A stretch of 64,000 nt of DNA from a virus (IMGVR_UViG_3300025138_000014:1-64000); one strand, 5' to 3'. Numbered from the stretch's first letter, positions 27,355 to 60,206 are shown. Program-made: numbers and translations. The notes: generated by a model not told the origin, from the sequence alone.

Positions 27355-29097
27355 ATGGCCAAAACTGTAGTAAACTTAACTGACTCAATACTGTCTTTTA
27401 AAGATAAAGTAAATGCTGTATCGGATGATATAGGTGATATTTCTAACCTTAGTACAACAGGTGCTGATAGTGATTTAGTTCAGTCTATAAACACAAATGC
27501 AACTAATATTGCAACTAATCTTGCAAGCATTAATGGTAATAATACTGATATTACTGCTATTCAAAATAGAGCAAACGCAGATTCGGATAAATTATCAGTC
27601 CTTGATTCAGATGTAGGTCTAAGAGCATCTTTAACAGCATCTATCGGTCCAAATTATTCTATTGTTGGAGCAATTAACTCTTTAAAGACATCTGTTACAG
27701 CTGTTGAAATTATTGCCGCTACTCTTGATTCCGATAAAGCAAGAAGTATTTTTACTGCTGTAAATAGCGGAACAGGTTATGGTGGTTTAACATATGATAG
27801 TGATAACGGCGAATTTACTTTTGGAAAAGTTACAGATGCTAATATTAGAGGTAGAGTAAGTGTTACAGACGCTGGCGGTGATGGTTCTTTAGCTTACAAC
27901 ACCAGCACAGGTGTTATTACATACACAGGACCGAGTGCAACTGAAGTACGAGCACACATTACAGCAGGCGAAGGTATTGATATATTAAATGGTTCTATTA
28001 GTGGCGAAGATGCTACTAAGGATAATAAAGGTATTGCATCCTATGATTCAGATCAATTTCTAATTGTAAGCGGAAAAGTTTTTATTAAAGGAGATGCTGT
28101 TGGATCTGCCCAGATTGCAGCAGGTTCAATTGGAACTACCCAACTAGCAGATGATGCTGTTAACGGTGATAAGATTGCAGACAATGCAATCAACTCCGAG
28201 CACTATGTAGACGGATCTATTGATAATGAACACATTGCCGATGATGCTATTAATTCTGAGCACTATGCAGATGGATCTATTGACACGGCTCATATAGCAG
28301 CGTCTCAAGTTACAAATGCTAAATTAGCCAATATGGCTGCTAATACAGTAAAGGTTAGAAATGCCAACTCAGCAGGTGCTCCCTCAGATATTGCACTGGC
28401 TACTACAAAAATTCTAATTGGTAACGGTGCTGGCTTTACTGCAGCTTCGTTATCTGGTGATGCTACCATGACAAATACCGGAGCTGTAACAGTTACAGGC
28501 GGCGATGTTGATTTTGCAACTCTTTCAACTAATGCTAATAACATCAACGTTGATGAGGCAAACGGAAATACAAACTATCAAGTATTGTTTAGTGATAATA
28601 ATGCAGCAGGATATCAACGGCCATACATTGATACAGATAATTCTCACTTCATGTATAATCCTTCAACACATACACTTACTGCGGGTACTTTCTCGGGTAA
28701 TGCCACAACTGCAAACTTTGCCGACCTTGCGGAGAAATACACTACAAGTGAAGTGCATAAAACTGGAACAGTAATGATGGTATCATCAAATGAAACTGAA
28801 GAAACAGTAGCATGTACTGCAAATGGAATTCCTATGGGTGTGGTTTCAGCTGATCCTGCATATTTAATGAACGCAGATATAGATGGACAAGCACTTGCTC
28901 TTAAAGGACGTGTTCCAGTTAGAATAGTTGGAGCTGTTAATAAAGGTGATCCCGTATATGCCCACCATAATGGATGCGCAGGCAAAGAGTTTAATGGCTT
29001 TGCACCAGATGGTTCTCATGCTGAAATAATAGGCATTGCTTTAGAATCATCCAATGTAACAGAAGAAAAATTGATAGAATGTGTACTTAAATTCTAA
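27355..29097 (+). CDS. tail fibre protein with C-terminal intramolecular chaperone/autocleavage-like domain
   Basis: 580 aa G/A/T/S/N-rich, internal repeat IAD(N/D)AINSEHY.DGSID; C-terminal 'ADLAEKY...G.V...PAYLMN...LKGRVPV.....KGD...IGIALE'. Confidence 0.75.
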   Translation: MAKTVVNLTDSILSFKDKVNAVSDDIGDISNLSTTGADSDLVQSINTNATNIATNLASINGNNTDITAIQNRANADSDKLSVLDSDVGLRASLTASIGPNYSIVGAINSLKTSVTAVEIIAATLDSDKARSIFTAVNSGTGYGGLTYDSDNGEFTFGKVTDANIRGRVSVTDAGGDGSLAYNTSTGVITYTGPSATEVRAHITAGEGIDILNGSISGEDATKDNKGIASYDSDQFLIVSGKVFIKGDAVGSAQIAAGSIGTTQLADDAVNGDKIADNAINSEHYVDGSIDNEHIADDAINSEHYADGSIDTAHIAASQVTNAKLANMAANTVKVRNANSAGAPSDIALATTKILIGNGAGFTAASLSGDATMTNTGAVTVTGGDVDFATLSTNANNINVDEANGNTNYQVLFSDNNAAGYQRPYIDTDNSHFMYNPSTHTLTAGTFSGNATTANFADLAEKYTTSEVHKTGTVMMVSSNETEETVACTANGIPMGVVSADPAYLMNADIDGQALALKGRVPVRIVGAVNKGDPVYAHHNGCAGKEFNGFAPDGSHAEIIGIALESSNVTEEKLIECVLKF

Positions 29098-29115
29098 TTT
29101 TTCACAGGATATACT

Positions 29116-30135
29116 ATGAATTGGTTGATGTACTTAAAGACGACAGAAACCTGCCAACTAAATTGTAGCCATTGTTTCACGAGTGGTCGTAATGGGCAGA
29201 AAATATATTGGAACACTACTAAAATTGTAGATTGGCTTCAAAGGTTTCGTGAAGAAAAACCCTCAAAAAATGATACAGCTCATATGGAGTTTCATGGCGG
29301 CGAACCATTCTTGGTTCCTGTTGGCCAAATGAGAAAAGTTTATGATGCTTGTGATGGTTTATGGGATCACATGACTTGGGGAGCAACTACAAATCTTGTT
29401 TTTAAATTAAAAGACGAACATAAAGAATTTATTAAAGGTCCTCTTGGTAATAGACTAGGTACATCTTGGGATCGTAAAATAAGATTTGAAAATAAAGCGC
29501 AATACAATCTTTGGCATAAAAATATTAAAACACTTCTATCTGAAGGCGTGACAATACGTCTTTTTATTAGTCTAACAAAGGATACCATTAAAAAAGATCC
29601 AATCGTACTATTAAGATGGATAAAAAGACTTGGAGTGCAAGAGGTTTCACTAGAAAGACTAACAAATAACGGTTCTGCTCGGAAACAAAGCTCAATTTTT
29701 CCATCAAATAAAGAATTAGACGAATATTTCCTTAAAATGCACATGCAAAGTGAGAAATATGGGGCACGAGAATGGTTTGATAATGATTTTTTAGAGAATA
29801 TATACGCTAAATTTGAGAAAACTCAGACAAATTGCGGTACTTTTTGTAGAGATTGTGAAGAAAAACTATTTACAATCAATGGGAATGGTACTATAGCAGG
29901 TTGTCCGAATTCTGCTCCAGAACAAGCATTTGGACACTTAGACGAACCAATAGATGTTATGTTAAAAAGTCCTAAAAGGATTAGAGGTATTCTTGAAGAA
30001 AGAATCCGAAATCCTATTTGTTATACGTGTCCTGTTACAAAATGGTGTGGTGGTGATTGCCATCAATTGGGATGGGATGGAGATACCTGTGGCGCACCAA
30101 AAAGTCTGATGAAAGAACTCGCTGGATTTGTATAA
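29116..30135 (+). CDS. radical SAM/SPASM-domain enzyme
   Basis: CxxxCxxC 'CQLNCSHC', 'FHGGEP', C-terminal 'CRDC..GCP..CYTCPVTKWCGGDC..C'. Confidence 0.92.
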   Translation: MNWLMYLKTTETCQLNCSHCFTSGRNGQKIYWNTTKIVDWLQRFREEKPSKNDTAHMEFHGGEPFLVPVGQMRKVYDACDGLWDHMTWGATTNLVFKLKDEHKEFIKGPLGNRLGTSWDRKIRFENKAQYNLWHKNIKTLLSEGVTIRLFISLTKDTIKKDPIVLLRWIKRLGVQEVSLERLTNNGSARKQSSIFPSNKELDEYFLKMHMQSEKYGAREWFDNDFLENIYAKFEKTQTNCGTFCRDCEEKLFTINGNGTIAGCPNSAPEQAFGHLDEPIDVMLKSPKRIRGILEERIRNPICYTCPVTKWCGGDCHQLGWDGDTCGAPKSLMKELAGFV

Positions 30136-30138
30136 ATA
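30131..30138 (+). promoter_or_regulatory. T4 late promoter TATAAATA
   Basis: Exact consensus 34 bp upstream of the CHxS-tail gene at 30172. Confidence 0.7.
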
Positions 30139-30171
30139 GAGTAAAAGAACAAGGTATTTACGGAGAACAAC

Positions 30172-30759
30172 ATGGTATCACTAACCAATCCAATAACTGC
30201 TCAAAATATAGTAAATAGATATGCTGATTATGTAGTTGCAACTTCAAACTCAGGCATTGTTTGGGGTACTAATTCAGTTCCGTTTAGTGATTTTTCTACA
30301 TCATATTTTGGTGGAACGACTGCTGGTCGGAGCATTGGAATTACTGGAGCCGATATAGACAACAATGTTAATAAAATTGATGCTTCCGAAATTAATGATG
30401 CTTTGGCAACAGAGACGGCAGCTTATAGTAACATACGTAAACTTAGGGCAATATTAAATTATACCGGTGTTGGTGACGGAGCAGGTGGCGCAGGTAACAC
30501 TGGAACTTGGCTCGGGACTCCAGGTGTTAACTTTGATCAGACTCAAGTTGCTTATCTGAATAACCAATATTTACAAACAATAAGTGCAACCACCAATTTA
30601 GGTGCAGGAGATATAATTGATGATTCTGTATTAGAAACTAAATTTGGCGCATTATCAACAGTCTATACAGCTGCTAGAAATAATACTCAGACAATTCAAA
30701 TTGATGTTTGTCACTCATCTTGTCACAGTAGTTGCCACGGATCAAGAGGACGCAGATAA
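30172..30759 (+). CDS. CHxS-repeat-tailed protein A (195 aa), putative radical SAM substrate/precursor
   Basis: Ends CHSSCHSSCHGSRGRR*; RBS GGAG; body is G/T/S/N-rich like a virion protein. Confidence 0.8.
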   Translation: MVSLTNPITAQNIVNRYADYVVATSNSGIVWGTNSVPFSDFSTSYFGGTTAGRSIGITGADIDNNVNKIDASEINDALATETAAYSNIRKLRAILNYTGVGDGAGGAGNTGTWLGTPGVNFDQTQVAYLNNQYLQTISATTNLGAGDIIDDSVLETKFGALSTVYTAARNNTQTIQIDVCHSSCHSSCHGSRGRR

Positions 30760-30762
30760 ATT

Positions 30763-31437
30763 ATGAACAATGTTGTTGAGACTACAGCACCAATTGATAT
30801 TAATGAATTAAAAAAGTTTTTTGAAAACAAAGACACATTTTATTTGATCAATTATGAGGAATCAGGACTCCAAGGCGTGAATCTATTAACGTATATGAGT
30901 AATCTTGATCTACCAGCTGATGTAGGATTTCAAACTCAAAAGGGTTTTGATGATCTTACTACAGCTTACTTACATGAGGAAGTAATATTAACTGTTCCTA
31001 TTTTGGAAATGAGAGTTATCGAACTTTTACTCCAAATGAAAGGTATGGTAGAGCCGAGAGAAAAAGATTTTATTGATGCGAATGTGGATATTCTAAAACT
31101 TTGGGCTAAAAAGTTGGATTCTCTTACACTCTTTAATATGTATTCTATTGGTCAAGAATCCTTTCACGATTATGTTAAATCTTATCCAATTGATAAAACT
31201 ATTTCAAATAAAGGTATAAATTTTGTATCTTTATTGAAGCATGAAAGATTTTTTATGTTTTATGGTAATATATATGAAGAACATAAAATATACTATGAAT
31301 CATACTTTAACGATTATATGTTCAAAGGTAACAATCTATTTCACTATTGGGCAAACGAAAATAATCCAATGTTTCTGTTAACGCAAGGGATTGCTTCAGG
31401 ATCACTACAGGAGAATCCAAATGTTCCATCTATTTAA
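30763..31437 (+). CDS. hypothetical protein (224 aa), paralog of 51198..51962
   Basis: Shared 'Y(M/L)(S/A)N', 'G.N...LL', 'F.G.(N/D)L(F/Y)' patterns. Confidence 0.75.
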   Translation: MNNVVETTAPIDINELKKFFENKDTFYLINYEESGLQGVNLLTYMSNLDLPADVGFQTQKGFDDLTTAYLHEEVILTVPILEMRVIELLLQMKGMVEPREKDFIDANVDILKLWAKKLDSLTLFNMYSIGQESFHDYVKSYPIDKTISNKGINFVSLLKHERFFMFYGNIYEEHKIYYESYFNDYMFKGNNLFHYWANENNPMFLLTQGIASGSLQENPNVPSI

Positions 31438-32569
31438 AAGAGTATATGTTGCTAGTGATGATATAATTGACTTTTCTATTAATAGAGTTGTTATATCTGA
31501 TATAAACGGTTTTCATGATGCAGGTTCTTCCGTTAATCAAATAGCATTTGCAAAAGACTGTTCAGATTTAATAGGTAGTGGTAAAGATAAACAGTTTAAA
31601 AGTTGGATTGATTTTTTTAGAACTATGTCTGATTTTACAGATACATTTAATAACGATAAAAAAGTGGTTATTTACTGTGATGATGATAATTTTATTAAAG
31701 TCATGTGTGCTTGGTATAAAATTATTTTTAAAGATCCTAGTGAAAAAACTTGTTTAAATTTATTAGAATCCAATGTGTTTAGATATAGAGTATTTGGTCA
31801 AGGCAGATGGGCTAAATCTTTTGCGGGAGATGCTAATAAATCATTCGACTTAAAGAACTTTAAAACTCATTGGGCAGCTAATAAAAAGCCGACCATTGCA
31901 TTGAGAAATAAATTTATTGAAGACTTCAAAGGCAGTCTTAATGTAGAACTATTGCTAGCAACATATCTTGCCAATGGAGAGATGAAAGTTGAACTGAAAA
32001 AAGCAGTAAAAACTATGCTATCTCTTGATTTGGAAAAATACCTATATGAACTAAAAGAATTATTCTTTACGCATATTATGACCAAAAAATATCACGCACG
32101 TTTACCAAAACCACTCAAAATGCAATTTGTATATCATTTCGGTAACTATGATACATCGCTTAATGATGACTCACCTATTGCAGAACTATTCTTATCTGAA
32201 CGTATATGGAACTCCAAGACCATGCGCAAACCCACTGCTGGTAAGAATATAAAATTCAATAATATCACTAGTGCTGATATCAAATTATTTAAACACTTTG
32301 ATAGTACATTCTTTAATACAGATACAGATAATCCAAAAATGATGAAGTCGGAATCATATAAACTAAACTGGATAGATGCTGTTAATGAAAATGAATTTTC
32401 AGACAAGCTGTTAAATAAGATTATTGAAAACGAATCATCATTTAATAATCTTCTAACCCCTGTGTTTTCCATGGAACAATCTACAGTAAATAATTATTTG
32501 GTAACAGCTTTATTTGAAGCACGAAATGATAATGATAAAGGTTTCTTAAAGAATTTTGCGATCATGTAA
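31421..32569 (+). CDS. hypothetical protein (about 382 aa)
   Basis: Likely start ATG 31421 (MFHLFKRVYV) after AGGAG RBS. Confidence 0.75.
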   Translation: MFHLFKRVYVASDDIIDFSINRVVISDINGFHDAGSSVNQIAFAKDCSDLIGSGKDKQFKSWIDFFRTMSDFTDTFNNDKKVVIYCDDDNFIKVMCAWYKIIFKDPSEKTCLNLLESNVFRYRVFGQGRWAKSFAGDANKSFDLKNFKTHWAANKKPTIALRNKFIEDFKGSLNVELLLATYLANGEMKVELKKAVKTMLSLDLEKYLYELKELFFTHIMTKKYHARLPKPLKMQFVYHFGNYDTSLNDDSPIAELFLSERIWNSKTMRKPTAGKNIKFNNITSADIKLFKHFDSTFFNTDTDNPKMMKSESYKLNWIDAVNENEFSDKLLNKIIENESSFNNLLTPVFSMEQSTVNNYLVTALFEARNDNDKGFLKNFAIM

Positions 32570-33589
32570 ATGTCTATATATGATCTATTAGAAAACAAAA
32601 TAACAACTTATGGTGAGATTGTTTGCTGCTTATTTGAGCACTGCAATCTAAAATGTGTTTTCTGCCCTCAAGATCATAATGATATACAAGGTGCTGACCG
32701 TGATGCTATTATGGCTAAAGTGCCACAGATTGTAGATTGGATTAATAATAATAGAAGAACTCAGGCTTATAAATTACATTTAATGGGCGGAGAACTCTTT
32801 CAAGATGAATGGATAGATAAAGGTTTCCTAGAAATATATCAGGACTTTATTGATTCTATTATAGCACAAACGGAAGCTGATGTCTACATAAATTTTATAA
32901 CTAATTTATGTTTTACTAAGTCAGATGTTGTAATGGAATTTTTAGAAGCAAATGATTTAACTATCTCTGTAAGTTATGATCCAGCTGGTAGATTTACTCC
33001 TAAAGCACATGAGATTTTTGTTTCTAATATTGAAACATATAAAGATAAGATTGAAATGATCTCGCTAGTTGCCACAAAACAGAATATAGCAAAAATTCAA
33101 CGTGGTGATAATTTATTTACATATCTTTACAATACATATCCTTGTGACTTTGACTCATTCTTACCTTCTGTAGATAACTCAAGAAAACTAATGCCTAGTG
33201 AAAGAACTCTTTTTGAGTTTAACAAATTGCTTGTATCTAAATATCCGAAATGTTTAAATGTTGATCATTTCGTTAATCAAAAAACACAGAATAAAATGAT
33301 TTGTACAAGAGGCAATTCTCTTACTGTAATGCCAGACGGATCTATTCCAACTGGTTGTTCTGGAGCAGTATTCTTAAAAGAAGCATCAACACCTGACCTG
33401 GCTGGTCCGGTGATCGTTGAAAAGTTTATGGCTAAATATAATTGCTTCGAGTGTAAATACTTTGCCCGATGCCCATTTAGCTGTTTCATTAAACAAGATT
33501 ATAAACACATTGAGCAAGATATGGACGAATGTGTATTTAAGGCGACATTCAAATATGCAGATAGCATTCATCAACCCACCGCATGCTGA
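32570..33589 (+). CDS. radical SAM/SPASM-like enzyme
   Basis: 'FEHCNLKCVFC', 'LMGGELFQD', C-terminal 'C..GC..CFECKYFARCPFSC..C'. Confidence 0.9.
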   Translation: MSIYDLLENKITTYGEIVCCLFEHCNLKCVFCPQDHNDIQGADRDAIMAKVPQIVDWINNNRRTQAYKLHLMGGELFQDEWIDKGFLEIYQDFIDSIIAQTEADVYINFITNLCFTKSDVVMEFLEANDLTISVSYDPAGRFTPKAHEIFVSNIETYKDKIEMISLVATKQNIAKIQRGDNLFTYLYNTYPCDFDSFLPSVDNSRKLMPSERTLFEFNKLLVSKYPKCLNVDHFVNQKTQNKMICTRGNSLTVMPDGSIPTGCSGAVFLKEASTPDLAGPVIVEKFMAKYNCFECKYFARCPFSCFIKQDYKHIEQDMDECVFKATFKYADSIHQPTAC

Positions 33590-35252
33590 TTGGTCATTAG
33601 CTAATAACTTCACATTTCTACTCATGCAAAGTTATTATAATCGCTTTGGTAAATATGCTGGGCAGATAGAATGGCTTGAATCTCCATATAAATGGAATAC
33701 CTATGAATCCTATGACGAAGTAACATCAGAGGTTATTAGTGCTGATGTAATTATGTTTTCATCTTATACATGGAACTATGTTATCTGTGATGAAATTTCG
33801 GCTAAAATTAAAAAAGAATATCCAAACAAAATATTAGTTTTAGGCGGTCCTCATATAGGTACAAATGAACCAGAACTATTAGCATCACGTCCGCAGTATG
33901 ATTTAATTTGTAGACCTACCAAACCAGGTGAGCCTTTTATGGCCGAGTTGATTGACCAGTTTATTGAAAAGAGAATTGATCCAACATATATCCCATGGGA
34001 GTTAAGGTCTGATATAGAAGTCATACACGATATAAGCAAAGAGGATTATTCAGTTTATGAAGATCACTTAGAATATATTACAAAGCTATTAGATTATTCA
34101 AGAGAACATAAGATGGAGCCTTTCATTGTTTTAGAGACAACAAGAGGTTGTCCTTACAAGTGTGTATTCTGTGAATGGGGTGGCGGTATCAATACAAAGA
34201 TTTATAAAAAGTCTGTAGATATTGTAAAGCGTGATATTAATGCTATGATAAAAGCTGGATATAGAGATGCTTATTTAACTGATGCAAATTTCGGAGCATT
34301 TCTAAAACGTGACTTTGAAATATTTGAATATGCTTGGGATAACAGTTTTAATTTAACAGATATATCCACTATGAAGTCAAAAGATTTACCAAGAAGAAAA
34401 GAGCTGATTGATAAGTGGTTTGAAATAGTAGATAAGCACGTTAAGGCGCCAGGTTCTACCGATGGTGAGGATATGTGGACTGAAACAGCTTTTGTTTCAT
34501 TAGTCCCAACTGTATCCATTCAAAGCAGTTCTGATACAGCCATGAAGTTAGCCGATCGTGTTGATTTAAATACTTATGATAAATTAAAATTAAGTGAATA
34601 TATTAATGAAAGATGTACTGAACACGGATATCCAATTCCAGCATTAGAGTTAATTCTTGCTATGCCCGGTTCTACAATAGATGACTTTTATTTTGAAATG
34701 GAATATATTTGGAACTTTAAAGCATTCGGTTCTTATCGGCACGACTATATGTTTTTGCCTGACTCAAGACTGAACTCTCCAGAATATAAGAAAAAACATA
34801 ATATTGAAACAGTAGAAGTATATTCAGATATTGTAGATGAACACGGCTCTGATAATTGGAACAGTTTATATAAAGACAAGAAATCATATTTTAGAACTAT
34901 CCTATCTTGTTTCTCTTTTACAAAAGAGGAGATGTATGAGATGTGGTTTATGAATAATGCGTGCAACTATATTCTACAGAAATTTTATCCACCTTTTGAG
35001 AAAAAAATGTCACCATCGGTATTTACAAAAGCAGTATATAATATTATAATAGAGTTAGACGAATGGATAGATATATATAATGAGATTAAAGATATTTACG
35101 ACCCAAATACTGCGCCTAAAAGTATTAGACAATTAGGTGGAAAATTTAGAACAGATTTTATAAATGATGTTCTGGAAAAAAATAGAATTATTATTATGTC
35201 GGAGGTTCATGGGGCATGTCAGGGAAGCAACTCACATTACAACTCACATTAA
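33555..35252 (+). CDS. cobalamin(B12)-binding radical SAM enzyme
   Basis: Likely start ATG 33555 (MQIAFINPP); B12-binding-like 'FSSYTWN...KIKKEYP...VLGGPH'; 'ETTRGCPYKCVFCEWG', 'DANFG', 'ELILAMPG'. Confidence 0.88.
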   Translation: MQIAFINPPHADWSLANNFTFLLMQSYYNRFGKYAGQIEWLESPYKWNTYESYDEVTSEVISADVIMFSSYTWNYVICDEISAKIKKEYPNKILVLGGPHIGTNEPELLASRPQYDLICRPTKPGEPFMAELIDQFIEKRIDPTYIPWELRSDIEVIHDISKEDYSVYEDHLEYITKLLDYSREHKMEPFIVLETTRGCPYKCVFCEWGGGINTKIYKKSVDIVKRDINAMIKAGYRDAYLTDANFGAFLKRDFEIFEYAWDNSFNLTDISTMKSKDLPRRKELIDKWFEIVDKHVKAPGSTDGEDMWTETAFVSLVPTVSIQSSSDTAMKLADRVDLNTYDKLKLSEYINERCTEHGYPIPALELILAMPGSTIDDFYFEMEYIWNFKAFGSYRHDYMFLPDSRLNSPEYKKKHNIETVEVYSDIVDEHGSDNWNSLYKDKKSYFRTILSCFSFTKEEMYEMWFMNNACNYILQKFYPPFEKKMSPSVFTKAVYNIIIELDEWIDIYNEIKDIYDPNTAPKSIRQLGGKFRTDFINDVLEKNRIIIMSEVHGACQGSNSHYNSH

Positions 35253-36056: not shown

Positions 36057-36526
36057 TTGCTTTTGACACAGATCTGCTTGTAAATGGATATAAAGTTTTT
36101 GAGGATAAAAAAATACTCTTTACTTTAGGTAAAATACCTGATATAAAAGAATGGGAAGGAGATCAAGTAAAGTCTCCAAAAGGCTTTGATCTCCGACTAG
36201 CTCAAAATTATATTAACAATAAGTATGTTGCGCCAGTATTTGGTGGAGCAGTATTTGGTTATAGTAATATATGGAGTGGAACAGATAGCAATAGTAAAGA
36301 ATGGCACAATGATTTAATTGAAGGTTTTAATCTATTTTTTATGTATTACCTAAGTGATATAACAGAAGGCGGAGAGTTATGTTTCAGAGTTAATGGTAAA
36401 GAAACTGGTTCAATTCAGCCTAAGAAAGATATGCTGGTAATGGGATCTCAAGAAAGATACGTTGAGCATAAAGTGAACGACTGCAATCAGGAAAGAATAG
36501 TGTGTAACTTTGGATACAATATATAA
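36053..36526 (+). CDS. 2OG-Fe(II) oxygenase
   Basis: 'WHND', 'YYLSD..EGGEL', 'EHKV', 'RIVCNF'; paralogous to 35216. Confidence 0.78.
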   Translation: MIAFDTDLLVNGYKVFEDKKILFTLGKIPDIKEWEGDQVKSPKGFDLRLAQNYINNKYVAPVFGGAVFGYSNIWSGTDSNSKEWHNDLIEGFNLFFMYYLSDITEGGELCFRVNGKETGSIQPKKDMLVMGSQERYVEHKVNDCNQERIVCNFGYNI

Positions 36527-37190
36527 AATAGAAGAATATCTGCCTAAAATAGGTCCCTTTAGCATATACGCTCTATCTCATTTAATAACTCAAAGTGAAA
36601 AGTTTAATAATCACTTAGCTATGACTCAGCCAGATAATAAGTTTGAGTTAATGTATGCCAACTGGATAGCCACTGGTAATGAAAGTTTCATAGATTATTA
36701 TAAAGATATAGTTGCTCAAGCGTGCTTTGCTGAATTTCTTGAATGGTATGAGTACATAGCAAAGAACATACTACGAGATGATGTTCAAAGTGAACTTGGT
36801 ATTAAGTTTGACTATGATGCAATTAATTGGGAAAATGAAGTAAAAAAGTCCGAACTATTTGGATGGGCTTGGAGAACAACAGACTACAAACACTTTATGA
36901 ATAATTTGGATAAAGTCAGCAAAATCGGTGCTATGATGAACAACTTTTTTAATGATAGAAAACCGTTAAGCACTTTAGATGCAGATTACTTTGAATCAGA
37001 TCATGCTCAACTTGTACTCGACTCAATAGATAAAATTTTAATAAATAATGATAGACAAGAAATAATAGATCATTTAAATACAGAGAAAATTCTGTGTATG
37101 ATAGAAGTGTACGGTTGGGACAATCGGTTTAATAATATTCTATTGAAATGGATTTCAGACAATAGGAATAAAGTAAAACACTGGGCATGA
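36510..37190 (+). CDS. hypothetical protein (226 aa)
   Basis: ORF in operon; ATGA coupling with next gene. Confidence 0.7.
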   Translation: MDTIYKIEEYLPKIGPFSIYALSHLITQSEKFNNHLAMTQPDNKFELMYANWIATGNESFIDYYKDIVAQACFAEFLEWYEYIAKNILRDDVQSELGIKFDYDAINWENEVKKSELFGWAWRTTDYKHFMNNLDKVSKIGAMMNNFFNDRKPLSTLDADYFESDHAQLVLDSIDKILINNDRQEIIDHLNTEKILCMIEVYGWDNRFNNILLKWISDNRNKVKHWA

Positions 37191-38089
37191 TAATATCAAT
37201 AAACCCAACCTACTTTTGTAACTTTAGATGTGATTTCTGCTATCTATCTCCTAAACAATTGGGTGACCAGAAACAGATTTACCTTGAAAAACTAGATGAA
37301 TTATTAGCCCAAGTCCCAGATATAGAACACATTGACTTGTACGGCGGCGAAGTCGGCGCAATGAAAAAGTCCTATTTTTATGGCCTTAAAGAAGTCATTA
37401 GAAAATATTACTCTGGTACAATTAATATAAACACAAATTATTCTATGATGCATCCAGGCTTCTTTGACCCAGATGTTTATCTTTCTGTATCGTATGATTT
37501 TGAAGCAAGAGAAAAGTCTGAACTTGTCTTTAATAATATGATGATGGCTACAGCTCCAATGGCTGTTCTAGTCTTGGCTTCACCAACAGTATTAAAAAAA
37601 GATGTACTGGAGATGATAAGTTTACTAAATATGTGTAGTTCAGTCAGGTCTGTTGAAATTAAACCATATTCTACCAATCAAGCAAATGCTCATCCAGTAA
37701 CACATAAAGATTTTGAAGATCACGTTATTAAGTGGTTAGAGTATGAAGATGAAATGAAGTTCCAGTTTGTAAATGCAGATAGAATCATAGACTCATTGGA
37801 AGGCAACTATAATGCATTCTCTGACGATCATATTTATATTACACCAAATGGAAAATTCGGAGTATTAGAATTTGACAAAGAGGATAAAGAATACTTCCTA
37901 GAACTGGACAGTTGGGACGACTATATACTATGGACTCAAAAAGAAAAAACTGAAATGTCTCCTATCTGTACTTCTTGTAAGTATTTTGGTAAGTGCTTAA
38001 CAGAACATTATAGATATGTGAAAGACCTTACAAATAGTTGTAATGGATATAAAGGATTACTAGATTGGGCTGATTTAAATCTAAATTAG
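37187..38089 (+). CDS. radical SAM enzyme with reduced SPASM-like tail
   Basis: 'PTYFCNFRCDFCY', 'LYGGE', C-terminal 'CTSCKYFGKC...C'. Confidence 0.9.
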   Translation: MIISINPTYFCNFRCDFCYLSPKQLGDQKQIYLEKLDELLAQVPDIEHIDLYGGEVGAMKKSYFYGLKEVIRKYYSGTININTNYSMMHPGFFDPDVYLSVSYDFEAREKSELVFNNMMMATAPMAVLVLASPTVLKKDVLEMISLLNMCSSVRSVEIKPYSTNQANAHPVTHKDFEDHVIKWLEYEDEMKFQFVNADRIIDSLEGNYNAFSDDHIYITPNGKFGVLEFDKEDKEYFLELDSWDDYILWTQKEKTEMSPICTSCKYFGKCLTEHYRYVKDLTNSCNGYKGLLDWADLNLN

Positions 38090-48123: not shown

Positions 48124-48510
48124 ATGCCCGATTATAATACACTAGATGCTTCACTACAAGCAAAAGCGGGTGGGGCACTGAGAACTTTTGATAAAACTAT
48201 GACTTTTACTGTAACTGCATATGTATTACAATCAGTTACTACTACTCAAGCAGGCCCTACAAGCACACTTGGCGTTACTCAAAGATTTGAATTTACAGGT
48301 GCTGCCGATTCACTTTACGACGATTATCTTGACTCTGGTATTTACACTGGGGCACGTATATATTCTCAAGATGTTATTGACTCAATTTCTAATACAATAC
48401 AAAGAACTGTAGATCAGATAGAAAGTCGAATCACTGATAGATCAATCTCAGCTTTAATTTGCCACAATAGTTGTCATACTAGCTGCCATACTTCAAGAGG
48501 GCGCAGATAA
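48124..48510 (+). CDS. CHxS-repeat-tailed protein B1 (128 aa), putative radical SAM substrate/precursor
   Basis: Ends CHNSCHTSCHTSRGRR*; starts immediately after fibre stop (TAAATG). Confidence 0.85.
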   Translation: MPDYNTLDASLQAKAGGALRTFDKTMTFTVTAYVLQSVTTTQAGPTSTLGVTQRFEFTGAADSLYDDYLDSGIYTGARIYSQDVIDSISNTIQRTVDQIESRITDRSISALICHNSCHTSCHTSRGRR

Positions 48511-48896
48511 TGGGAAATATGACGAGAGACAGTGTCGACTCTTATATCCAAACTTATTCTGGAGCGAAGTTAAGAACATTTGACAAAACTATTACTATAA
48601 CAACTACAGCATATCAGAATAACAATCCCACTGCTATGGGTGGAACAGGTACTAATACTACGACACATAGGTTTGAATATACAGGTGCTGCCGATTCACT
48701 ATTCGATAACTATATTGATGGAGGTATCGCAGTGGGCCAAAGAGTTTATGCGCAAGATATTGTAGACACTTTAGAGGATGCAGTACAAAGAACAGTTGAT
48801 TTGATTGAAAGTCGAATTGATAACAGATCTATCAGCGCAGCGTTATGTCACAGTAGTTGTCATACAAGCTGTCACACATCGAGAGGAAGACGCTAA
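48510..48896 (+). CDS. CHxS-repeat-tailed protein B2 (128 aa), tandem paralog of B1
   Basis: Ends CHSSCHTSCHTSRGRR*; shares 'LRTFDKT', 'RFE.TGAADSL.D.Y.D.GI', 'QRTVD.IESRI..RSISA' with B1. Confidence 0.85.
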   Translation: MGNMTRDSVDSYIQTYSGAKLRTFDKTITITTTAYQNNNPTAMGGTGTNTTTHRFEYTGAADSLFDNYIDGGIAVGQRVYAQDIVDTLEDAVQRTVDLIESRIDNRSISAALCHSSCHTSCHTSRGRR

Positions 48897-51183: not shown

Positions 51184-51197
51184 GATTATAATATATC

Positions 51198-51962: not shown

Positions 51963-52965
51963 TACATATGCTGGATACTGGAATTTCAAAAAAGATAAAT
52001 CTCCAGTAAATCAGGCATTTTTAAGAACAGAGATCAACCTTGACATTCTTCACGGCTGTAGCCAGATGTGTCCAGGCTGTTTTATTCCCAGAAAAAACTT
52101 AACTGATCCAAATGGAATGATAGAACTTCATAAGTTGCTTATCAATGGGCAATTTTATCCAGATGAAATCACTATTGGTCCAACTGATATATTTGATGCA
52201 GAAAATTTTGATGAAGTTATGAGACATCCTGGGCTCAAACTTCTTTATGAAATATCAGGTGTCGGATATACAACTACTTTACTACAACATGAAGAAGTTG
52301 TAAAGAGAAAACTTGCTATGATCTGGGATATTTATCAGCACATACATAGAATGCCAGATATGGATTTCAAAATTGTATTTGATATTGACAAATATCTTGA
52401 TGGAGAACTAGATGATTGGTATAAAAAATTAGAGTTATTCAATCTAGGTTCCGTTCAATTTAGGGTAAACTACCATAAAGGTGTGTTTGATAGAATTGGA
52501 TATAATGAGTTATGTAAAAGAGTTAAAGAGGATTTTAATACTCCGATTATTATTACTCCAAGTTTCTTAACTGATAGAAATGTAAGAGGAAAGGTTGATC
52601 AACATCTTGCTTCATTTAGACAAGAGTTATTAGATCAGAAAATAGATAGAGAATGGCTTCAGTATTATACATTCTTTGACGCCGAGTTTAATGGACTTGG
52701 TTGCCAGAACTATTCTTTTTATAATGGAAAGCTATATACAAATCCATTTTTATATGATAATATAATCCAGAGAACACCTAAGTTTGAAACAACTATGGAT
52801 GAAAATACCCTGTTTGATAATATAGATTATGCTCAACAGGTAGATGACTGTAATGGGTGTGAATATATGATGAGTTGTGCAGAGCGCAATATTCACTTAT
52901 ATATGGAGTCACGTAATTTGGAATCATGCGTTGCTCTTAAAGAGTATATGTATGCCCCTCATTAA
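51943..52965 (+). CDS. divergent radical SAM enzyme (IGPTD type)
   Basis: 'GCSQMCPGCFI', 'IGPTD', 'CNGCEYMMSC...C'. Confidence 0.85.
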   Translation: MIVHLNDTYAGYWNFKKDKSPVNQAFLRTEINLDILHGCSQMCPGCFIPRKNLTDPNGMIELHKLLINGQFYPDEITIGPTDIFDAENFDEVMRHPGLKLLYEISGVGYTTTLLQHEEVVKRKLAMIWDIYQHIHRMPDMDFKIVFDIDKYLDGELDDWYKKLELFNLGSVQFRVNYHKGVFDRIGYNELCKRVKEDFNTPIIITPSFLTDRNVRGKVDQHLASFRQELLDQKIDREWLQYYTFFDAEFNGLGCQNYSFYNGKLYTNPFLYDNIIQRTPKFETTMDENTLFDNIDYAQQVDDCNGCEYMMSCAERNIHLYMESRNLESCVALKEYMYAPH

Positions 52966-55241: not shown

Positions 55242-56241
55242 CAATAAAAGAGCTGCCCAAGCAGATGCAGACTTTGATGTAAGTTTAGGTCAAGGACATG
55301 AAATAAAAGTCCAGTTCAATTGTGAGATATTATCTGGCTGTGAGTTTAAATGTAAAGGATGTTTTGTTAATAAATTAGGCAACAATGTTGGGTCATTTGA
55401 TAGGTTAAACAATGCCATTGATCTGTTTAGCGCAAATGGATATAGAGTATCAACAATTAATATCGGACCCACAGATTTATTCGGTAATAATAATGTTATT
55501 GAGTTATTGAAAGATGAAACCTTTCGTGAATGTTTAAGCAAAGTTTCTACTATACAATTCGTCACGACCCTAATAAACATTTCGTCAGAAGTAATTGATT
55601 TACTTAACAGCATACCTAAAATAGATGGGTTTATGTATGATGCAAACATAGCTTTACAACCACCAGTAAATTGGGATATGATAGAGGAACGGCTAAAACT
55701 ACTCAACGGTTTTACCGATGATCTAAATTATTATATGGTTTATAATATGGGTAATGATGACGAGTACAATAATAAAGTATTAGAAATGTCTGATATTGTA
55801 GATGATAGATTTGATTCTATTCTTACATTAAATCCATCATTCTTTAGAGCGCCAAAAAGTAAAGTACAAACACATCTAATTGAGAAGTGGAAAAATTATG
55901 ACTTTTCACCTGACTTATATCCAAAGACAATTATTGATAAATCGCAAGGTGGAAGTCTTGAACTAAATTACACATACTGTAATGGTAGGTTTTTCTGGAC
56001 TCCATTTGTATATGATATTGCTATGATCGGAACTAAGGAGTTTGAAGTCAAAGATGAGAACGATATTGAATCTTGGACTGAAGCTAAATCATTTCAATTT
56101 ATGAAACAATTAACGTATTCTAGTGAAACGGAAAACTGTGGTTCTTGCGGTAACATGATGACTTGTATAGACAAAGGGGTTCTAAGTTATATGGAACATC
56201 ATTCAATTAAATCTTGTGTCTTTCCTGGAGTCTTTTCATAA
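55213..56241 (+). CDS. divergent radical SAM enzyme (IGPTD type)
   Basis: 'GCEFKCKGCFV', 'IGPTD', 'CGSCGNMMTC...C'. Confidence 0.85.
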   Translation: MRCIVGIVINNKRAAQADADFDVSLGQGHEIKVQFNCEILSGCEFKCKGCFVNKLGNNVGSFDRLNNAIDLFSANGYRVSTINIGPTDLFGNNNVIELLKDETFRECLSKVSTIQFVTTLINISSEVIDLLNSIPKIDGFMYDANIALQPPVNWDMIEERLKLLNGFTDDLNYYMVYNMGNDDEYNNKVLEMSDIVDDRFDSILTLNPSFFRAPKSKVQTHLIEKWKNYDFSPDLYPKTIIDKSQGGSLELNYTYCNGRFFWTPFVYDIAMIGTKEFEVKDENDIESWTEAKSFQFMKQLTYSSETENCGSCGNMMTCIDKGVLSYMEHHSIKSCVFPGVFS

Positions 56242-57323
56242 TCAAATCCTGTTATAAGATTTTGACCAGTTTTATCCATGTAATTAAACCACATTCTCAT
56301 AATACAATCTGGTAAATCTCTCTCACGATTTTTCCAGTCCCATTGTGTATAGCATCTAAATCCACACTTGTTGTACCACTTACATGATAAGCAACCATTT
56401 TCATCCATATAAGCCTGCATCATGCCAGTATTATCTTTACGCTCAAACTTTGTATTAAAGTCCCTTTGATCGTATCTATCCCATCTACAATTAGATGTAG
56501 AATTATCTGGAAATATGGTAACTTTATTCAGAGCCAAACAGTGCATGTGATTAGACTCATTATAGATTAGATCCTTAATAGGGTTAATATCAGGATAGTT
56601 GTGATATACAAACTTTAGAAACTCCAGATATTTACTATCGGACGGAATCATATAATCATATCCACGGTCTGGAATATAATCGTCAAAATAGAAGTTGTCA
56701 AATTTATCATACAGATAATGAAAATACTCATCATCATCTGCCATGAACTTTTCTATACTGAGAGTAGTTGCTACCATATTAATTGAAGTAATATAATCAG
56801 CAAAATATTCAATGTTCTTTGCGTAGGGACCTTTTGTTGGTCTCCCGTCAAAGTCATAAGAGCAAATAATAAAGCTAGGTATATCAATAGCATTTAAATC
56901 ATCTAATAACTTTTTTAGTCTTTCTCTTTTACTAAATTGAAAAGAAGTAACCCACACAATTTTTATTGTTTGATCATGCTCGTCATAAATCTTTTTAACA
57001 GCTACTAGGAAATCATAATAATATGGATAAAACTCTTCCGATATTCTATCTTGAAATAATTCTCCTCCAAGCATATTGATCTGAATAATATCAGCACGAC
57101 CTTTCATCTTTATAACGTGTTCTTCAACCAATTCAAGCTTTGAAAATATACCCTCACGAGATAGTCCAACTTCAGACTTTTTATCATGGTGGCAGAACGA
57201 GCAGTTGAGATGACAATTCTCAAATAGAGTCATCTCAATCTCTGCTATATCAGGCCGTTTAGCCTCAAGCAAAGTTCTTGTAAAATCATATTCTGGGTTC
57301 GACTGAACCTTAGAGTTGATCAA
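56199..57323 (-). CDS. radical SAM/SPASM-like enzyme, paralog of 32570
   Basis: 'LFENCHLNCSFC', 'MLGGELFQD', 'CLSCKWYNKCGFRC...C'. Confidence 0.9.
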   Translation of the reverse strand: MINSKVQSNPEYDFTRTLLEAKRPDIAEIEMTLFENCHLNCSFCHHDKKSEVGLSREGIFSKLELVEEHVIKMKGRADIIQINMLGGELFQDRISEEFYPYYYDFLVAVKKIYDEHDQTIKIVWVTSFQFSKRERLKKLLDDLNAIDIPSFIICSYDFDGRPTKGPYAKNIEYFADYITSINMVATTLSIEKFMADDDEYFHYLYDKFDNFYFDDYIPDRGYDYMIPSDSKYLEFLKFVYHNYPDINPIKDLIYNESNHMHCLALNKVTIFPDNSTSNCRWDRYDQRDFNTKFERKDNTGMMQAYMDENGCLSCKWYNKCGFRCYTQWDWKNRERDLPDCIMRMWFNYMDKTGQNLITGFDYEKTPGKTQDLIE

Positions 57324-57717
57324 ACATCATTTCCTCTTCATAGTATTTCCTTATATCTGGAACCATTCCTCTGCTTTCATCCCAATCTTCAAGTACAATA
57401 TCTAGGATAGCATGATAAACATCTGGATCGGTAGTATATCTTTTAAAGTATGGATCGTTATTAAAAAGTAAATCTACATCATCTAGTGCGGCAAAGAAGT
57501 CTTCGTTAAAATCTTCGGAGATCCATTTAGCATAACAGATAGCCACGGCATATGATTTTGCTGGATAAAGCCAAATATCCACTTTCTCATAAAAGTGCAT
57601 GATTGCATTATTAATAATTTCTTCATCAATAACAATATCAACTTTGTTTAGATCATCTTCATGTTCTGTTACCATATGGTGAAATGCTTTTTGTCTTACT
57701 TTCCATTCCTGCATCAC
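57310..57717 (-). CDS. hypothetical protein (135 aa, acidic)
   Basis: Coupled ORF between two radical SAM genes. Confidence 0.75.
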   Translation of the reverse strand: MMQEWKVRQKAFHHMVTEHEDDLNKVDIVIDEEIINNAIMHFYEKVDIWLYPAKSYAVAICYAKWISEDFNEDFFAALDDVDLLFNNDPYFKRYTTDPDVYHAILDIVLEDWDESRGMVPDIRKYYEEEMMFDQL

Positions 57718-58769
57718 GCAACTCCTTCTAAATACATTTGCGATTCATCAACATAAGGTGTAATAGCATTTTCACTCATACCATTCATCTTTAATATTTG
57801 AGGTGCTAGTCCTTTCATCTGTTTACAATGTGCTTCAACAGTCTTTTCTCTTTTCATGTCACGTACTGTCTTTTTACAACCATTACATATTTCAAACATA
57901 GGACAACTAAAGCAAGACATTTTCATAGACTGAATATTTGGATCATGCTGTAACGGAGTTTGCATTTTTCCATTCATCTCTTCCTCAAAGTTGATTGGAT
58001 AATCCATATCATCTGCAAAAGAGCCACATGAATAATAATCTCCACCTGGATTAAATGCTCTAATTCCTTCATCACATTTTCTATTTTGCGGACAAGTTGT
58101 AGCACTTCCACCCAGCCGTCTTACCAACTGCTTTGTATTATATTCCCATTCGGTAAGACCTTGGTTATACACGTCAACGTAAATGGCATACATCTTACTT
58201 AATCTGTAAGTACTGCCTTGAACTCCAGAAGCCATAGCATAATTTAATTTACATTCGACATTCATTTCTTTAGCCAGCTTCACATTATCAATAGCACGAT
58301 AATCACTCATATCAGTCATAACGGAAATAAAGTCTGCTCTTTCACCGCAATACTTCAACATAGCATCTTGGCATCTCCAAAAGTCCTCTACAGTAAATTC
58401 GGTAAAATCACCTTTTAATCTACCACCACCAAATTGGAAAGATGTAGCAATACCCATTCGTTCGTGATTAAATAGATCAACCCACTTTTGTGGCTTCATT
58501 AAGAATGGCCATAAGTTTGTAGTGAAACTGATACTGGCTTTATAGTCATGTTCATCTAAGTGATCAATTAGATCCCAATAATATTTGGGCTTGACCATAA
58601 GTGGATCGCCACCATTAATAATTAAAGTATTGGTTTCTGGGTATCTTTTAAGGAATCTGTAGATATAATCTAAATCTAGTAACCCGGCTTTATCTGGGTC
58701 AATAGCGGTAGATGAACAGAATGAGCATTTAAAGTTACACGCTTCTGTAGGTTTAATAATTAGATCCAT
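57714..58769 (-). CDS. radical SAM/SPASM-domain enzyme
   Basis: 'KPTEACNFKCSFC', 'NGGDPL', 'CP....C...YSC...CFSCPMFEICNGC...C'. Confidence 0.92.
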   Translation of the reverse strand: MDLIIKPTEACNFKCSFCSSTAIDPDKAGLLDLDYIYRFLKRYPETNTLIINGGDPLMVKPKYYWDLIDHLDEHDYKASISFTTNLWPFLMKPQKWVDLFNHERMGIATSFQFGGGRLKGDFTEFTVEDFWRCQDAMLKYCGERADFISVMTDMSDYRAIDNVKLAKEMNVECKLNYAMASGVQGSTYRLSKMYAIYVDVYNQGLTEWEYNTKQLVRRLGGSATTCPQNRKCDEGIRAFNPGGDYYSCGSFADDMDYPINFEEEMNGKMQTPLQHDPNIQSMKMSCFSCPMFEICNGCKKTVRDMKREKTVEAHCKQMKGLAPQILKMNGMSENAITPYVDESQMYLEGVA

Positions 58770-59791
58770 TGCTTTTCTTCCGCTAGAGTCATCATCAAGG
58801 TTTTAGGTGCAGGACAGACATCATCCATCCAATAGAGTTGGTGACAATCAGATTTACAATATAAGAAAACTGGGCACTTATAACATCTCTCATCTCTATC
58901 GTTTATTTCTTCACTTATTGTGCACATTCGTGCAGGATTTAATTTTACTACCTCTGCTGGAGTATTTATAGTATCGTAATGTTTTGTTGGTGCAGTATTT
59001 GGACAACCCGCTACTGTTCCATCAGCATTAATAGTAAAAATTTTCTGCTCACAGTCACGACAAAAAGTACCAATACTAAATTGCCCATGTGAAAATTTCT
59101 TATAAACTGAGTCTAAAAATCCATTAAAGACATTATGATCTTTAGTTGTTTTGTGCATCTTCATCCACCAAGCATCTAATTCTCTATTATGTGGAAAAAT
59201 ATCAGTATTAATTTTAGCATTACCATCGTGGGTTAATCTCTCATAACTAATTTCATCAATGCCTATTGATTCCATATAGTCCGCTATCCATAGAGGTTCT
59301 AGTTTTAGAATGTCCTTAGATACCGAAATAAAACATTTCATTCTGTGACCACGAGAAGCTAAAAACTTTACATTGTTTTCCCATAGTTCTCTTTGTTTTT
59401 CATTAGAAAATCTAATATTTGGATCCCAGCTGGTTCCAATACTTCCGCCATCAATACATTCTTCAAGGAATGATAATCTTGCTTCATTTAATTTAAAAAC
59501 TAGATTGCTAGTTATTCCATGGGTACAACGGTCTCCCCATTGATCTTTAGTTATCCGATGAAATTCACGTAAATGATCCATTGGTGCAAGAAGAGGTTCT
59601 CCACCGTGATATTCTAAATGAATTTGATTTGTTCCGTTATCTAATTGATTGACCCAGTTAGCAGTCTTTATATGGTCAAAATAAATCTTTCTACCATTCT
59701 TACCGCTAGTGAAGCAATGGAAACAATTAAGATTGCAGGTTTCCGTTGTCTTCACATACACGCAAGTAAATTTTTGTGTCACTAATGCCAT
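58760..59791 (-). CDS. radical SAM/SPASM-domain enzyme, paralog of 29116
   Basis: 'KTTETCNLNCFHCFTSG', 'YHGGEP', 'GTSWD', 'CRDC..GCPN..CYKCPVFLYCKSDC..C'. Confidence 0.92.
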   Translation of the reverse strand: MALVTQKFTCVYVKTTETCNLNCFHCFTSGKNGRKIYFDHIKTANWVNQLDNGTNQIHLEYHGGEPLLAPMDHLREFHRITKDQWGDRCTHGITSNLVFKLNEARLSFLEECIDGGSIGTSWDPNIRFSNEKQRELWENNVKFLASRGHRMKCFISVSKDILKLEPLWIADYMESIGIDEISYERLTHDGNAKINTDIFPHNRELDAWWMKMHKTTKDHNVFNGFLDSVYKKFSHGQFSIGTFCRDCEQKIFTINADGTVAGCPNTAPTKHYDTINTPAEVVKLNPARMCTISEEINDRDERCYKCPVFLYCKSDCHQLYWMDDVCPAPKTLMMTLAEEKQWI

Positions 59792-60206
59792 AACTGAATA
59801 TCAATGCTTCCTGAGTGTTTAATGCACGATGTTTTGTGCCTTTTGGTATTTCTACTTGTTCACCTGGATTTAGTAACTTTGTAGAACCTTCAATTTCTAA
59901 TATTTTATTACCATCGCAGCAATATATTACTACATCTACTGGATCTGTATGTTCTTCAAAAGATGGACCATCAATAGGATTATAAAATATATGCATCGTG
60001 CCTTCATTATAATCAACAATCTTTTCATACATCTCAATTTTTAATGTATTCTTTTCTGCGATTAAAGCCGAAATTTTACCATAATATACCCAATAGTTAT
60101 CTTGTTCAACATACTGTATTCTGTGTTCACTATCTATAACCGAAACATTACAAACATTGAAGCACTGTTCGGAGAGAATAAACTCAAAGAACTGTTCAAA
60201 ATTCAT
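59727..60206 (-). CDS. cupin/JmjC-like protein
   Basis: 'SFEEHTDPVDV', 'G.K', 'L.PGE...IPKGTKHRA'. Confidence 0.75.
   Translation of the reverse strand: MNFEQFFEFILSEQCFNVCNVSVIDSEHRIQYVEQDNYWVYYGKISALIAEKNTLKIEMYEKIVDYNEGTMHIFYNPIDGPSFEEHTDPVDVVIYCCDGNKILEIEGSTKLLNPGEQVEIPKGTKHRALNTQEALIFSYGISDTKIYLRVCEDNGNLQS

Follow-up and report, generated by a model that had tools for sequence, protein, structure and literature searches.

The 64,000-nucleotide stretch analysed here (the window) is the first 64 kb of the 151,329-bp IMG/VR virus record IMGVR_UViG_3300025138_000014. It encodes three small proteins that end in the same 16-residue tail, (Cys-His-x-Ser)3-Arg-Gly-Arg-Arg (CHxS, one unit of the tail); they lie behind two fibre genes and next to blocks, or cassettes, of radical S-adenosylmethionine (radical SAM) enzymes. 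The source is a T4-like marine myophage with a G+C content of about 35%; its nearest structural proteins are those of Synechococcus phages S-CAM1 and S-CAM3 (45-46% identity). Near-identical copies of the stretch occur in seawater metagenomes from about nine independent studies, and a megablast search with both cassettes against cultured phages gave no match.

The host-recognition region spans 22.1-62.8 kb. A giant DUF4815 protein is followed by fibre A, enzyme block A (29116-38089), more structural genes (38153-46014) and fibre B; after fibre B come two small genes, a plus-strand enzyme block B (48896-56241) and a minus-strand block (56199-60206). The open reading frames (ORFs) marked in an earlier interpretation made from the DNA alone (the sequence-only reading) were recovered where it had placed them. 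The fibre and tailed genes are:

27355..29097, + strand: fibre A, 580 residues; probable phi29-gp12-like autochaperone domain from about 28723; predicted cut between A456 and D457
30131..30138, + strand: T4-type late-promoter box TATAAATA, 33 nt before the start of tailed protein A, then GGAG
30172..30759, + strand: tailed protein A, 195 residues; predicted folded alpha/beta body and flexible tail; (CHxS)3RGRR at 30709-30756
46027..48123, + strand: fibre B, 698 residues; collagen-like GXY stretch; probable autochaperone domain from about 47764; predicted cut between S579 and D580
48124..48510, + strand: tailed protein B1, 128 residues; motif at 48460-48507; start abuts the fibre B stop
48510..48896, + strand: tailed protein B2, 128 residues; 58% identical to B1; motif at 48846-48893

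The CHxS-tailed proteins

Exactly three proteins with a CHxSCHxSCHxSRGRR-stop end are encoded in the entire 151,329-bp record, and each tailed gene or gene pair sits behind one of the two fibres described below. The B1 ATG immediately follows the fibre B TAA, so the TAAATG junction of the sequence-only reading is confirmed. That reading had also placed both modules directly behind a fibre; this is true of B, but in A a radical SAM gene (29116) lies between the fibre and the tailed gene.

Homology between tailed proteins A and B is confined to the last ~55 residues (hhalign probability 98.9%). Each tail consists of three H-x-S units, every one preceded by Cys; all Cys and nearly all His of these proteins fall inside the motif. 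A word-based search returned more than 100 metagenomic homologues, and a full profile search returned 632 clusters (50% identity, E<=1e-3). Among the best 150 of the 632 matches, the alignment reaches the last residue in all but two; one of these exceptions (P0246) ends in FRFRR, not RGRR.

The 48-nt tail occurs in 86 distinct DNA versions (125 tails from 80 viral loci). His and Ser are invariant or nearly so across these versions, in a search whose pattern constrained Cys and GRR only; small or polar residues fill the x positions. AGY and TCN codons both occur for Ser. The number of DNA versions and the use of both Ser codon families indicate that the tail is under protein-level selection and is not due to chance.

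The bodies are variable, with insertions of up to 80 residues in type-B proteins (cassette types are defined below). Two metagenomic members, P0186 and P0262, are tailed proteins of 453 and 533 residues; one has a 270-residue Gly-rich N-terminal domain and the other an insert of ~300 residues in the middle of the conserved scaffold. Such enlargements would be expected in a surface-exposed, diversifying part of the protein. Repeat number also varies. A homologue on a Dysosmobacter segnis contig (L092:3-362) has ~13 tandem CHxS units in CHxSCHxSCHSN blocks, then ARGRR, and is followed by 30763-like, rSAM2 and rSAM3 genes (named in the enzyme list below); the repeat can thus expand, as in HxsA and in ribosomally synthesised peptides that are modified after translation (RiPPs) and have repeated cores.

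AlphaFold predicts a confident alpha/beta domain for tailed protein A (mean predicted local distance difference test score, pLDDT, 84; predicted template-modelling score 0.77) from which the last 15 residues protrude (pLDDT ~52). The B1 model is less confident (pLDDT 75). No domain was found in the tailed proteins by Pfam and NCBIfam at E<=0.01; PHROGs matched phrog_35144 only (function not assigned). Foldseek against the PDB (B1 and A) and a wide VIA-align search (A) gave no clear fold match (best Z 4.5), BFVD returned only the protein's own uncharacterised family, including gp170 of Agrobacterium phage Atu_ph07, and the ESM Atlas gave no informative neighbour.

The late-promoter box before tailed protein A is counted in favour of late expression. 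Since TATAAATA is not enriched across the window (14 found, 10.7 expected), only single box positions are used.

The fibres and their end domain

Fibres A and B are alike only over their last ~150 residues (35% identity, E 3e-16). A profile of this end domain matches exactly two genes in the whole record, fibres A and B, as the sequence-only reading had proposed. The fibre B domain matches Pfam PF11962 (Peptidase_G2) at 23.0 bits, below the cut-off of 25 (E 5.8e-5); the fibre A match is weak (E 0.2). Searched against the PDB, a profile built from 23 of these domains matches the phi29 gp12 autochaperone best (3GQH, E 0.0046), and Y-A-D-L-A-E-K-Y of the profile aligns with T689-W-S691-D692-F-A-E695 of full-length gp12 (6QZ9). 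The cleavage motif (A/S)-D-L-A-E is present at the start of the domain; D, A and E are invariant in 23 of 23 sequences. In gp12 the chaperone cuts itself off between S691 and D692.

The fibres therefore probably carry a self-cleaving C-terminal chaperone of the phi29 gp12 (Peptidase_G2) kind, not of the T4-gp37 or S74 kind. The autocleaving chaperone of the sequence-only reading is upheld to this extent. Peptidase_S74 (PF13884) was rejected as the identity of the fibre ends, as Pfam found no match in either fibre even when the isolated domains were searched to E<=10. All Cys of fibre A (three) and fibre B (two) lie in the end domain beyond the predicted cut; mature fibres would thus be free of Cys.

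The collagen-like GXY stretch of fibre B (47344-47541) is proline-poor, with GQKGEVGG repeats. One protein downstream (60844-62781, plus strand) joins GT25 and PLOD glycosyltransferase (E 1.5e-44) and 2-oxoglutarate (2OG) oxygenase domains; it is kept beside the cassette in a relative that has only the B cassette (L098). This enzyme and the GXY stretch suggest collagen-type lysine hydroxylation and glycosylation of fibre B.

Enzymes and accessory proteins

The remaining genes of the two blocks, and the giant protein upstream, are listed below; rSAM1 to rSAM4 denote the four core radical SAM enzymes, and other genes are named by a coordinate.

29116..30135, + strand: rSAM1-A, radical SAM/SPASM; CxxxCxxC at residue 13; SPASM (TIGR04085) 28.3 bits, cut-off 27; paralogue of 58760
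30763..31437, + strand: accessory protein, phrog_20767; in every type-A cassette; distant paralogue of 51198
31421..32569, + strand: accessory protein, type-A cassettes only; ORF opens at 31391 (TTG), conserved start MFHLF
32570..33589, + strand: rSAM2-A, radical SAM; C-terminal Cys cluster; paralogue of 56199
33555..35252, + strand: B12-binding class-B radical SAM, KedN5-like (E 9e-25); optional, in 7 of 20 type-A cassettes
35216-35764 and 36053-36526, + strand: two 2OG-Fe(II) oxygenase paralogues; small ORF 35739-36056 between them
36510..37190, + strand: accessory protein, no family match
37187..38089, + strand: rSAM4, 37187-type core radical SAM; sole copy in the genome; relatives with B only keep one in their own cassette
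48896-50080, 51943-52965, 52877-54115, 54105-55241 and 55213-56241, + strand: C1-C5, divergent radical-SAM-like paralogues; CxxxCxxC and CxxCx5C...C in each
50077-51183 and 51198-51962, + strand: accessory genes among C1-C5
56199..57323, - strand: rSAM2-B; paralogue of 32570
57310..57717, - strand: 57310-type accessory protein, small; single-copy; shared by most cassettes of either type
57714..58769, - strand: rSAM3, radical SAM/SPASM; best weak match anaerobic sulfatase maturase; single-copy; in 20 of 20 type-A cassettes
58760..59791, - strand: rSAM1-B, radical SAM/SPASM; paralogue of 29116; groups with type-B rSAM1
59727..60206, - strand: Cupin_2 protein; single-copy; just before rSAM1 in most relatives
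22100..27130, + strand: giant structural protein (DUF4815, phrog_358) at the head of the host-recognition region; most type-A cassettes have a homologue in front

The CxxxCxxC motif is present in 12 of 12 radical-SAM-type proteins, and a C-terminal CxxCx5Cx3C-type cluster in 11 of 12; it is absent from the B12-type enzyme. With its SPASM score above the cut-off, the 29116 product has the radical SAM core plus SPASM architecture. NCBIfam matches are limited to radical SAM/SPASM families that modify peptides or proteins (PapB, DynA, DarE, anaerobic sulfatase maturase, QhpD-type, CXXX-repeat, HxsB/C and cyclophane synthases), all far under the family cut-offs. The best scores against named maturase families such as PapB, CXXX-repeat and DarE are 35-42 bits (cut-offs 340-650), and the equivalog cut-off for anaerobic sulfatase maturase is not reached by any cassette enzyme. 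No PDB match was found by phmmer with rSAM1 and rSAM3. Three 2OG-Fe(II) oxygenases and one cupin are also encoded. Virion maturation would rely on cobalamin from the host if the B12 enzyme is active.

At 48857-48896 and 52877-52965, the ORFs of C1 (TTG start) and C3 (GTG start), taken at their longest, overlap the preceding genes, that of C1 running over the tail codons of B2. The real starts are probably downstream ATGs.

Synteny in other phages and bacteria

Eighty IMG/VR loci fall into two cassette types. In type B, the order is a 43066-like structural gene, an end-domain fibre, two tandem tailed genes of 125-140 residues, C1, 50077, 51198, C2-C5 and the core. In type A, the giant protein and an end-domain fibre are followed by a cupin, rSAM1, one tailed gene of 180-290 residues, 30763, 31391 and rSAM2, then by optional B12-radical SAM and 2OG enzymes, rSAM3 (57714 type), rSAM4 (37187 type) and 57310. 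Of the type-A loci whose flanks are complete, all 20 have rSAM1, rSAM2, rSAM3 and a 30763-family protein, and 19 have rSAM4.

The fibre ends no more than 8 bp from the first tailed gene in all 35 type-B loci with enough upstream sequence; an end-domain fibre lies within ~2 kb upstream in 25 of 34 type-A loci. The proposed tie between the cassettes and such fibres holds across very distant phages.

The core kit is also found in jumbo phages of Ralstonia and Burkholderia (RSL2, RSF1, FLC6/8 and SURPRISE13), Pseudomonas phage DT01 and Agrobacterium phage Atu_ph07; in Sinorhizobium phage Phosso only rSAM1 and a 30763-type protein were matched. The Atu_ph07 fibre just upstream, gp176, ends in a matching Y-A-D-L-A-E-N-Y...G-R-V-P-V-K...G-R-A-L-E-D domain. 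Genes annotated as dihydrofolate reductase lie inside the radical-SAM cassettes of RSL2 (L001:15030-16179) and SURPRISE13 (L002:15394-16571).

Five Bdellovibrio-like and Pseudobdellovibrio genome bins contain the kit as well. In the two bins whose flanks were checked, the neighbours are ordinary chromosomal genes (FabH, acyl-CoA ligase and ABC transporter genes). On a 299-kb contig of a Pseudobdellovibrio bin, the cassette lies next to a protein whose N-terminus is of prepilin type and which carries a Peptidase_S74 intramolecular chaperone (L091:17582-19258; E 2e-14); behind it comes a stand-alone 204-residue protein that by eye resembles the D-L-A-E...G-R-V-P-V end domain. These two proteins are a possible cellular fibre partner of the system.

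The gene order of type B, where the tailed genes come right behind a fibre whose chaperone is removable, like gp38 behind gp37 in T2/S16, is an argument for the proposal of the sequence-only reading that the tailed proteins are gp38-like tip adhesins, with the modified C-terminal end as the receptor-binding surface, tuned by each cassette for host range. Relatives do carry different cassettes, and some family members have Gly-rich or large inserted domains. However, the tail is invariant across the family (632 clusters) in phages whose hosts range from marine bacteria to Ralstonia and Agrobacterium, as well as in predatory bacteria; a determinant of specificity should vary. No Pfam GP38 match and no clear fold match was found (Pfam, Foldseek, VIA-align), and the core enzymes are common to both cassettes. 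This explanation is unlikely, and receptor specificity probably does not lie in the modified end. An invariant tail points to an anchor or lock instead of a host-specific surface; the variable, insertion-prone middle of the tailed protein is a better candidate for specificity.

The strict co-occurrence of tail and core enzymes also bears on whether the tail is modified at all. It could be an unmodified metal- or Fe-S-binding motif, with Cys/His layers in a trimer, and the radical SAM enzymes could act on the fibres or on a small molecule. His repeats often bind metals in phage fibres, as at the T4 gp37 tip; the four-residue Cys spacing fits a single helix face; and a candidate fibre-modifying enzyme, the GT25/PLOD protein, is nearby. 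Against this, tail and core enzymes co-occur strictly, rSAM1 adjoins the tailed gene in unrelated phage lineages and bacteria, and metal binding alone would leave unexplained that Ser is as invariant as Cys and His. An unmodified tail is thus improbable.

Virion proteomics of a relative

The virion proteome of Atu_ph07 includes gp170 (31.89 kDa; 8 unique peptides, 35% coverage), detected in gel bands 1-9 and most abundant in band 1 (PMC6102473 Table S5). This is the tailed protein, as it has 296 residues and ends in the tail CHSSCHASCHNSRSRR. On the same gel band 1, at the top, contains a 127-kDa protein, and ~30-kDa proteins have their maximum in bands 7-8 (PMC6102473); the detection of gp170 by mass spectrometry in band 1 therefore indicates that the tailed protein is a particle protein in a high-mass form stable to sodium dodecyl sulfate (SDS). 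The enzymes and helpers gp165-169, gp171 and gp172 are not listed in the virion proteome (PMC6102473). The sequence-only reading was open to refutation if tailed proteins were absent from virions; in Atu_ph07 the homologue is present and the enzymes are absent, so the reading withstands this check in that phage.

The fibre gp176 (66.07 kDa, 14 peptides) peaks in band 4, at the level of 51-57 kDa proteins (PMC6102473). This migration, ~10-14 kDa light, fits the loss of the ~14-kDa end domain.

Packaging of the full-length body also bears on the idea that the tailed protein is a RiPP or cofactor precursor, in which the folded body serves as a long leader for a 16-residue core that would be modified and cut off as a small product (metal chelator, cofactor or toxin). 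The gene logic of precursor plus maturase fits, the enzymes resemble RiPP maturases, peptide-derived cofactors typically have invariant cores, and the ~13 units of the Dysosmobacter homologue would suit a repeated core. However, the 296-residue Atu_ph07 homologue is abundant in virions; the bodies vary strongly and have acquired inserted domains, although it is the leader that is normally conserved; the kit has no conserved protease or exporter; and no RiPP recognition element (RRE) or PqqD-type domain was detected in Pfam and NCBIfam scans of the cassette proteins. A released product is therefore quite unlikely.

Paralogy and history of the two cassettes

The enzyme pairs 29116/58760 (44% identity, E 8e-104) and 32570/56199 (29% identity, E 3e-38) are clear paralogues by BLASTP, as had been proposed. 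The third proposed pair, 30763/51198, is not seen by BLASTP and is supported at profile level only (hhalign probability 97%, E 3e-11, 186 columns). Homology of 31391 and 50077 was rejected (hhalign probability 6%).

Duplication of the enzyme set is partial. Block A lacks the cupin, rSAM3 and 57310, and block B lacks rSAM4; each of these is present once in the window. Only rSAM1, rSAM2 and the 30763/51198 helper are still in two copies. As each missing core gene is present once in the other block, the cassettes are now complementary, and the notion of one self-sufficient cassette per fibre is wrong for this genome. The duplicated rSAM1, rSAM2 and helper may be the parts that recognise different bodies, with the shared enzymes acting on the common tail.

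In the rSAM1 tree (FastTree, midpoint root, read without its support values), the two copies fall in separate deep clades, the A copy beside type-A and the B copy beside type-B cassettes from other phages; rSAM1 sequences of jumbo phages and Bdellovibrio branch between these clades. Recent duplication of a cassette within the genome was rejected because the copies are only 44% identical and lie in separate deep clades. To judge from these sequences, cassettes A and B are old, separate lineages that reside together here.

Some near-complete relatives have the B cassette alone (G001, 91% complete) and others the A cassette alone (G004, 94%, and G005, 100%), so that the cassettes do behave as modules. 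In a genome with B only, that cassette contains the complete core: cupin, rSAM1, rSAM3, rSAM4, 57310 and rSAM2. A survey of pelagimyophages describes radical-SAM cassettes that differ within the host-recognition cluster (PMC7029224). Taken as a whole, the sequence-only reading is partly supported.

Proposed maturation of the tailed proteins

With a probability of roughly 55%, the co-inherited kit acts on the tail as its substrate, modifying it covalently in the cytoplasm, and the fibre module takes up the matured protein. The three CHxS-tailed proteins would be late virion proteins of this host-recognition module, and their flexible, invariant tail the enzyme substrate. The kit would comprise the four core radical SAM/SPASM enzymes, the cupin and two helper proteins, extended in this phage by the B12-radical SAM, the 2OG oxygenases and five extra radical-SAM paralogues; the enzymes would act inside the cell and not be packaged. 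Once the fibre trimerises, its chaperone would cut itself off between Ser or Ala and Asp of (S/A)-D-L-A-E. The matured tailed protein may then join the fibre, with the tail as anchor and the variable middle exposed. Gene order makes attachment to the cleaved fibre tip plausible.

The changes to Cys, His and Ser would turn the tail into a rigid, possibly cross-linking lock. By analogy, candidate chemistries are Cys thioethers, as made by PapB or QhpD; three-residue His-to-Ser cyclophanes, as in triceptides; or oxidation of Cys to formylglycine. For the last of these, the final unit has sulfatase spacing, but the sulfatase motif (C/S)-x-(P/A)-x-R is not matched, as position 3 is mostly Gly, Thr or Ser instead of Pro or Ala (Ala in 4 of 86 sequences).

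Several points weigh against this proposal. Modification of the tail is inferred in every phage considered, and the virion evidence comes from a single distant relative, Atu_ph07. The loading buffer, as described, contains no reductant (PMC6102473), so the high-mass species could be disulfide oligomers between tails. The chaperone assignment comes from weak scores (23 bits against a Pfam cut-off of 25; PDB E 0.005). Nine of 34 type-A loci have no such fibre within 3 kb, and in RSL2 and DT01 the upstream fibre-like gene lacks the chaperone domain and ends differently. Finally, radical SAM enzymes are oxygen-sensitive and the likely hosts are aerobic marine bacteria.

A stronger form of the proposal is tentative, and on balance doubtful: phages and Bdellovibrio-like predators may covalently staple a variable protein into or onto a trimeric fibre through the (CHxS)3-RGRR tail, after self-cleavage of the chaperone, by RiPP-type radical-SAM chemistry. 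If so, enzymes would be making an SDS-stable joint in the apparatus that recognises host or prey, and virions would have a new class of post-translational modification. To our knowledge, virion proteins are rarely modified by enzymes, proteolysis aside. A kit of four to twelve radical SAM enzymes for the 16-residue tail of a particle protein would represent a new form of maturation in virions, and also new radical-SAM chemistry on a Cys-His-Ser motif. The kit is part of the host-recognition cluster in abundant marine myophages and is shared by jumbo phages that infect plant pathogens and by predatory bacteria. It may therefore have a bearing on the building, stabilisation or exchange of fibres.

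Comparison with known systems

A literature search combining phage, radical SAM and fibre found no description of the motif or system, only genome-annotation mentions and one pelagimyophage remark. Its parts resemble several known systems. The fibre end domain is like that of the phi29 pre-neck appendage protein gp12 (Peptidase_G2, 3GQH/6QZ9) in being a C-terminal fibre or spike domain of ~130 residues with S/A-D-(L/F)-A-E at the S691-D692 site; gp12 itself is not known to be followed by a small partner protein or an enzyme cassette. The type-B gene order matches that of gp37-gp38 in T2/S16, with a small protein encoded right behind a fibre whose chaperone is removable. Type A departs from this order, with the cupin and rSAM1 between the fibre and the tailed gene. 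No sequence or clear fold similarity to gp38 was found, the chaperone probably belongs to another family, and gp38 is not known to be modified by enzymes.

The enzymes resemble radical SAM/SPASM maturases (anSME of sulfatases, QhpD of the QHNDH gamma subunit, PapB of ranthipeptides, CXXX-repeat maturase and triceptide cyclophane synthases) in their CxxxCxxC motif and SPASM/twitch clusters. The target is similarly a repeated, Cys-rich C-terminus; H-x-S fits the three-residue cyclophane pattern, and the Cys-to-Arg spacing of the last unit, C-H-x-S-R, is that of the sulfatase motif. The phage system departs from these in that a single 16-residue target would have four to twelve enzymes, neither a leader nor an RRE was recognised, and the product would stay on a virion protein.

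In the bacterial defence system HXS, the radical SAM enzymes HxsB and HxsC act with HxsD to mature the HxS-repeat protein HxsA, with +8 Da on SHRSS (Nat Commun 2026, PMC13128918). Both systems have a full-length protein with tandem His-x-Ser units, at least two radical SAM enzymes and a small helper, and HxsA acts at the phage-cell interface. The phage motif differs in being Cys-His-x-Ser, in exactly three units at the extreme C-terminus, then RGRR. The phage enzymes score only 17-26 bits against HxsB/HxsC cut-offs of 268-370 (best 26.4 against 370 and 26.1 against 267.9), no match to HxsA (TIGR03979) or HxsD was found, and the tailed proteins have no peptidoglycan-binding domain in Pfam and NCBIfam scans. 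The phage system is also encoded beside fibre genes and its protein is packaged in virions.

That HXS places radical-SAM-matured HxS repeats at the cell envelope, and that both systems act at the entry step, could mean that the tailed proteins are counter-defence or assembly factors, such as decoys against HXS-type envelope defences, which enter the virion incidentally. This is very improbable, given the lack of homology to HxsA, HxsB, HxsC or HxsD beyond the superfamily level, the tight linkage to fibre genes and the presence of the cassette in predatory bacteria. Enzymatic maturation of the tail for the fibre module is preferred, and by analogy the phage system would work like HXS without being a member of it: a natural counterpart to a bacterial defence in which radical SAM enzymes mature HxS repeats.

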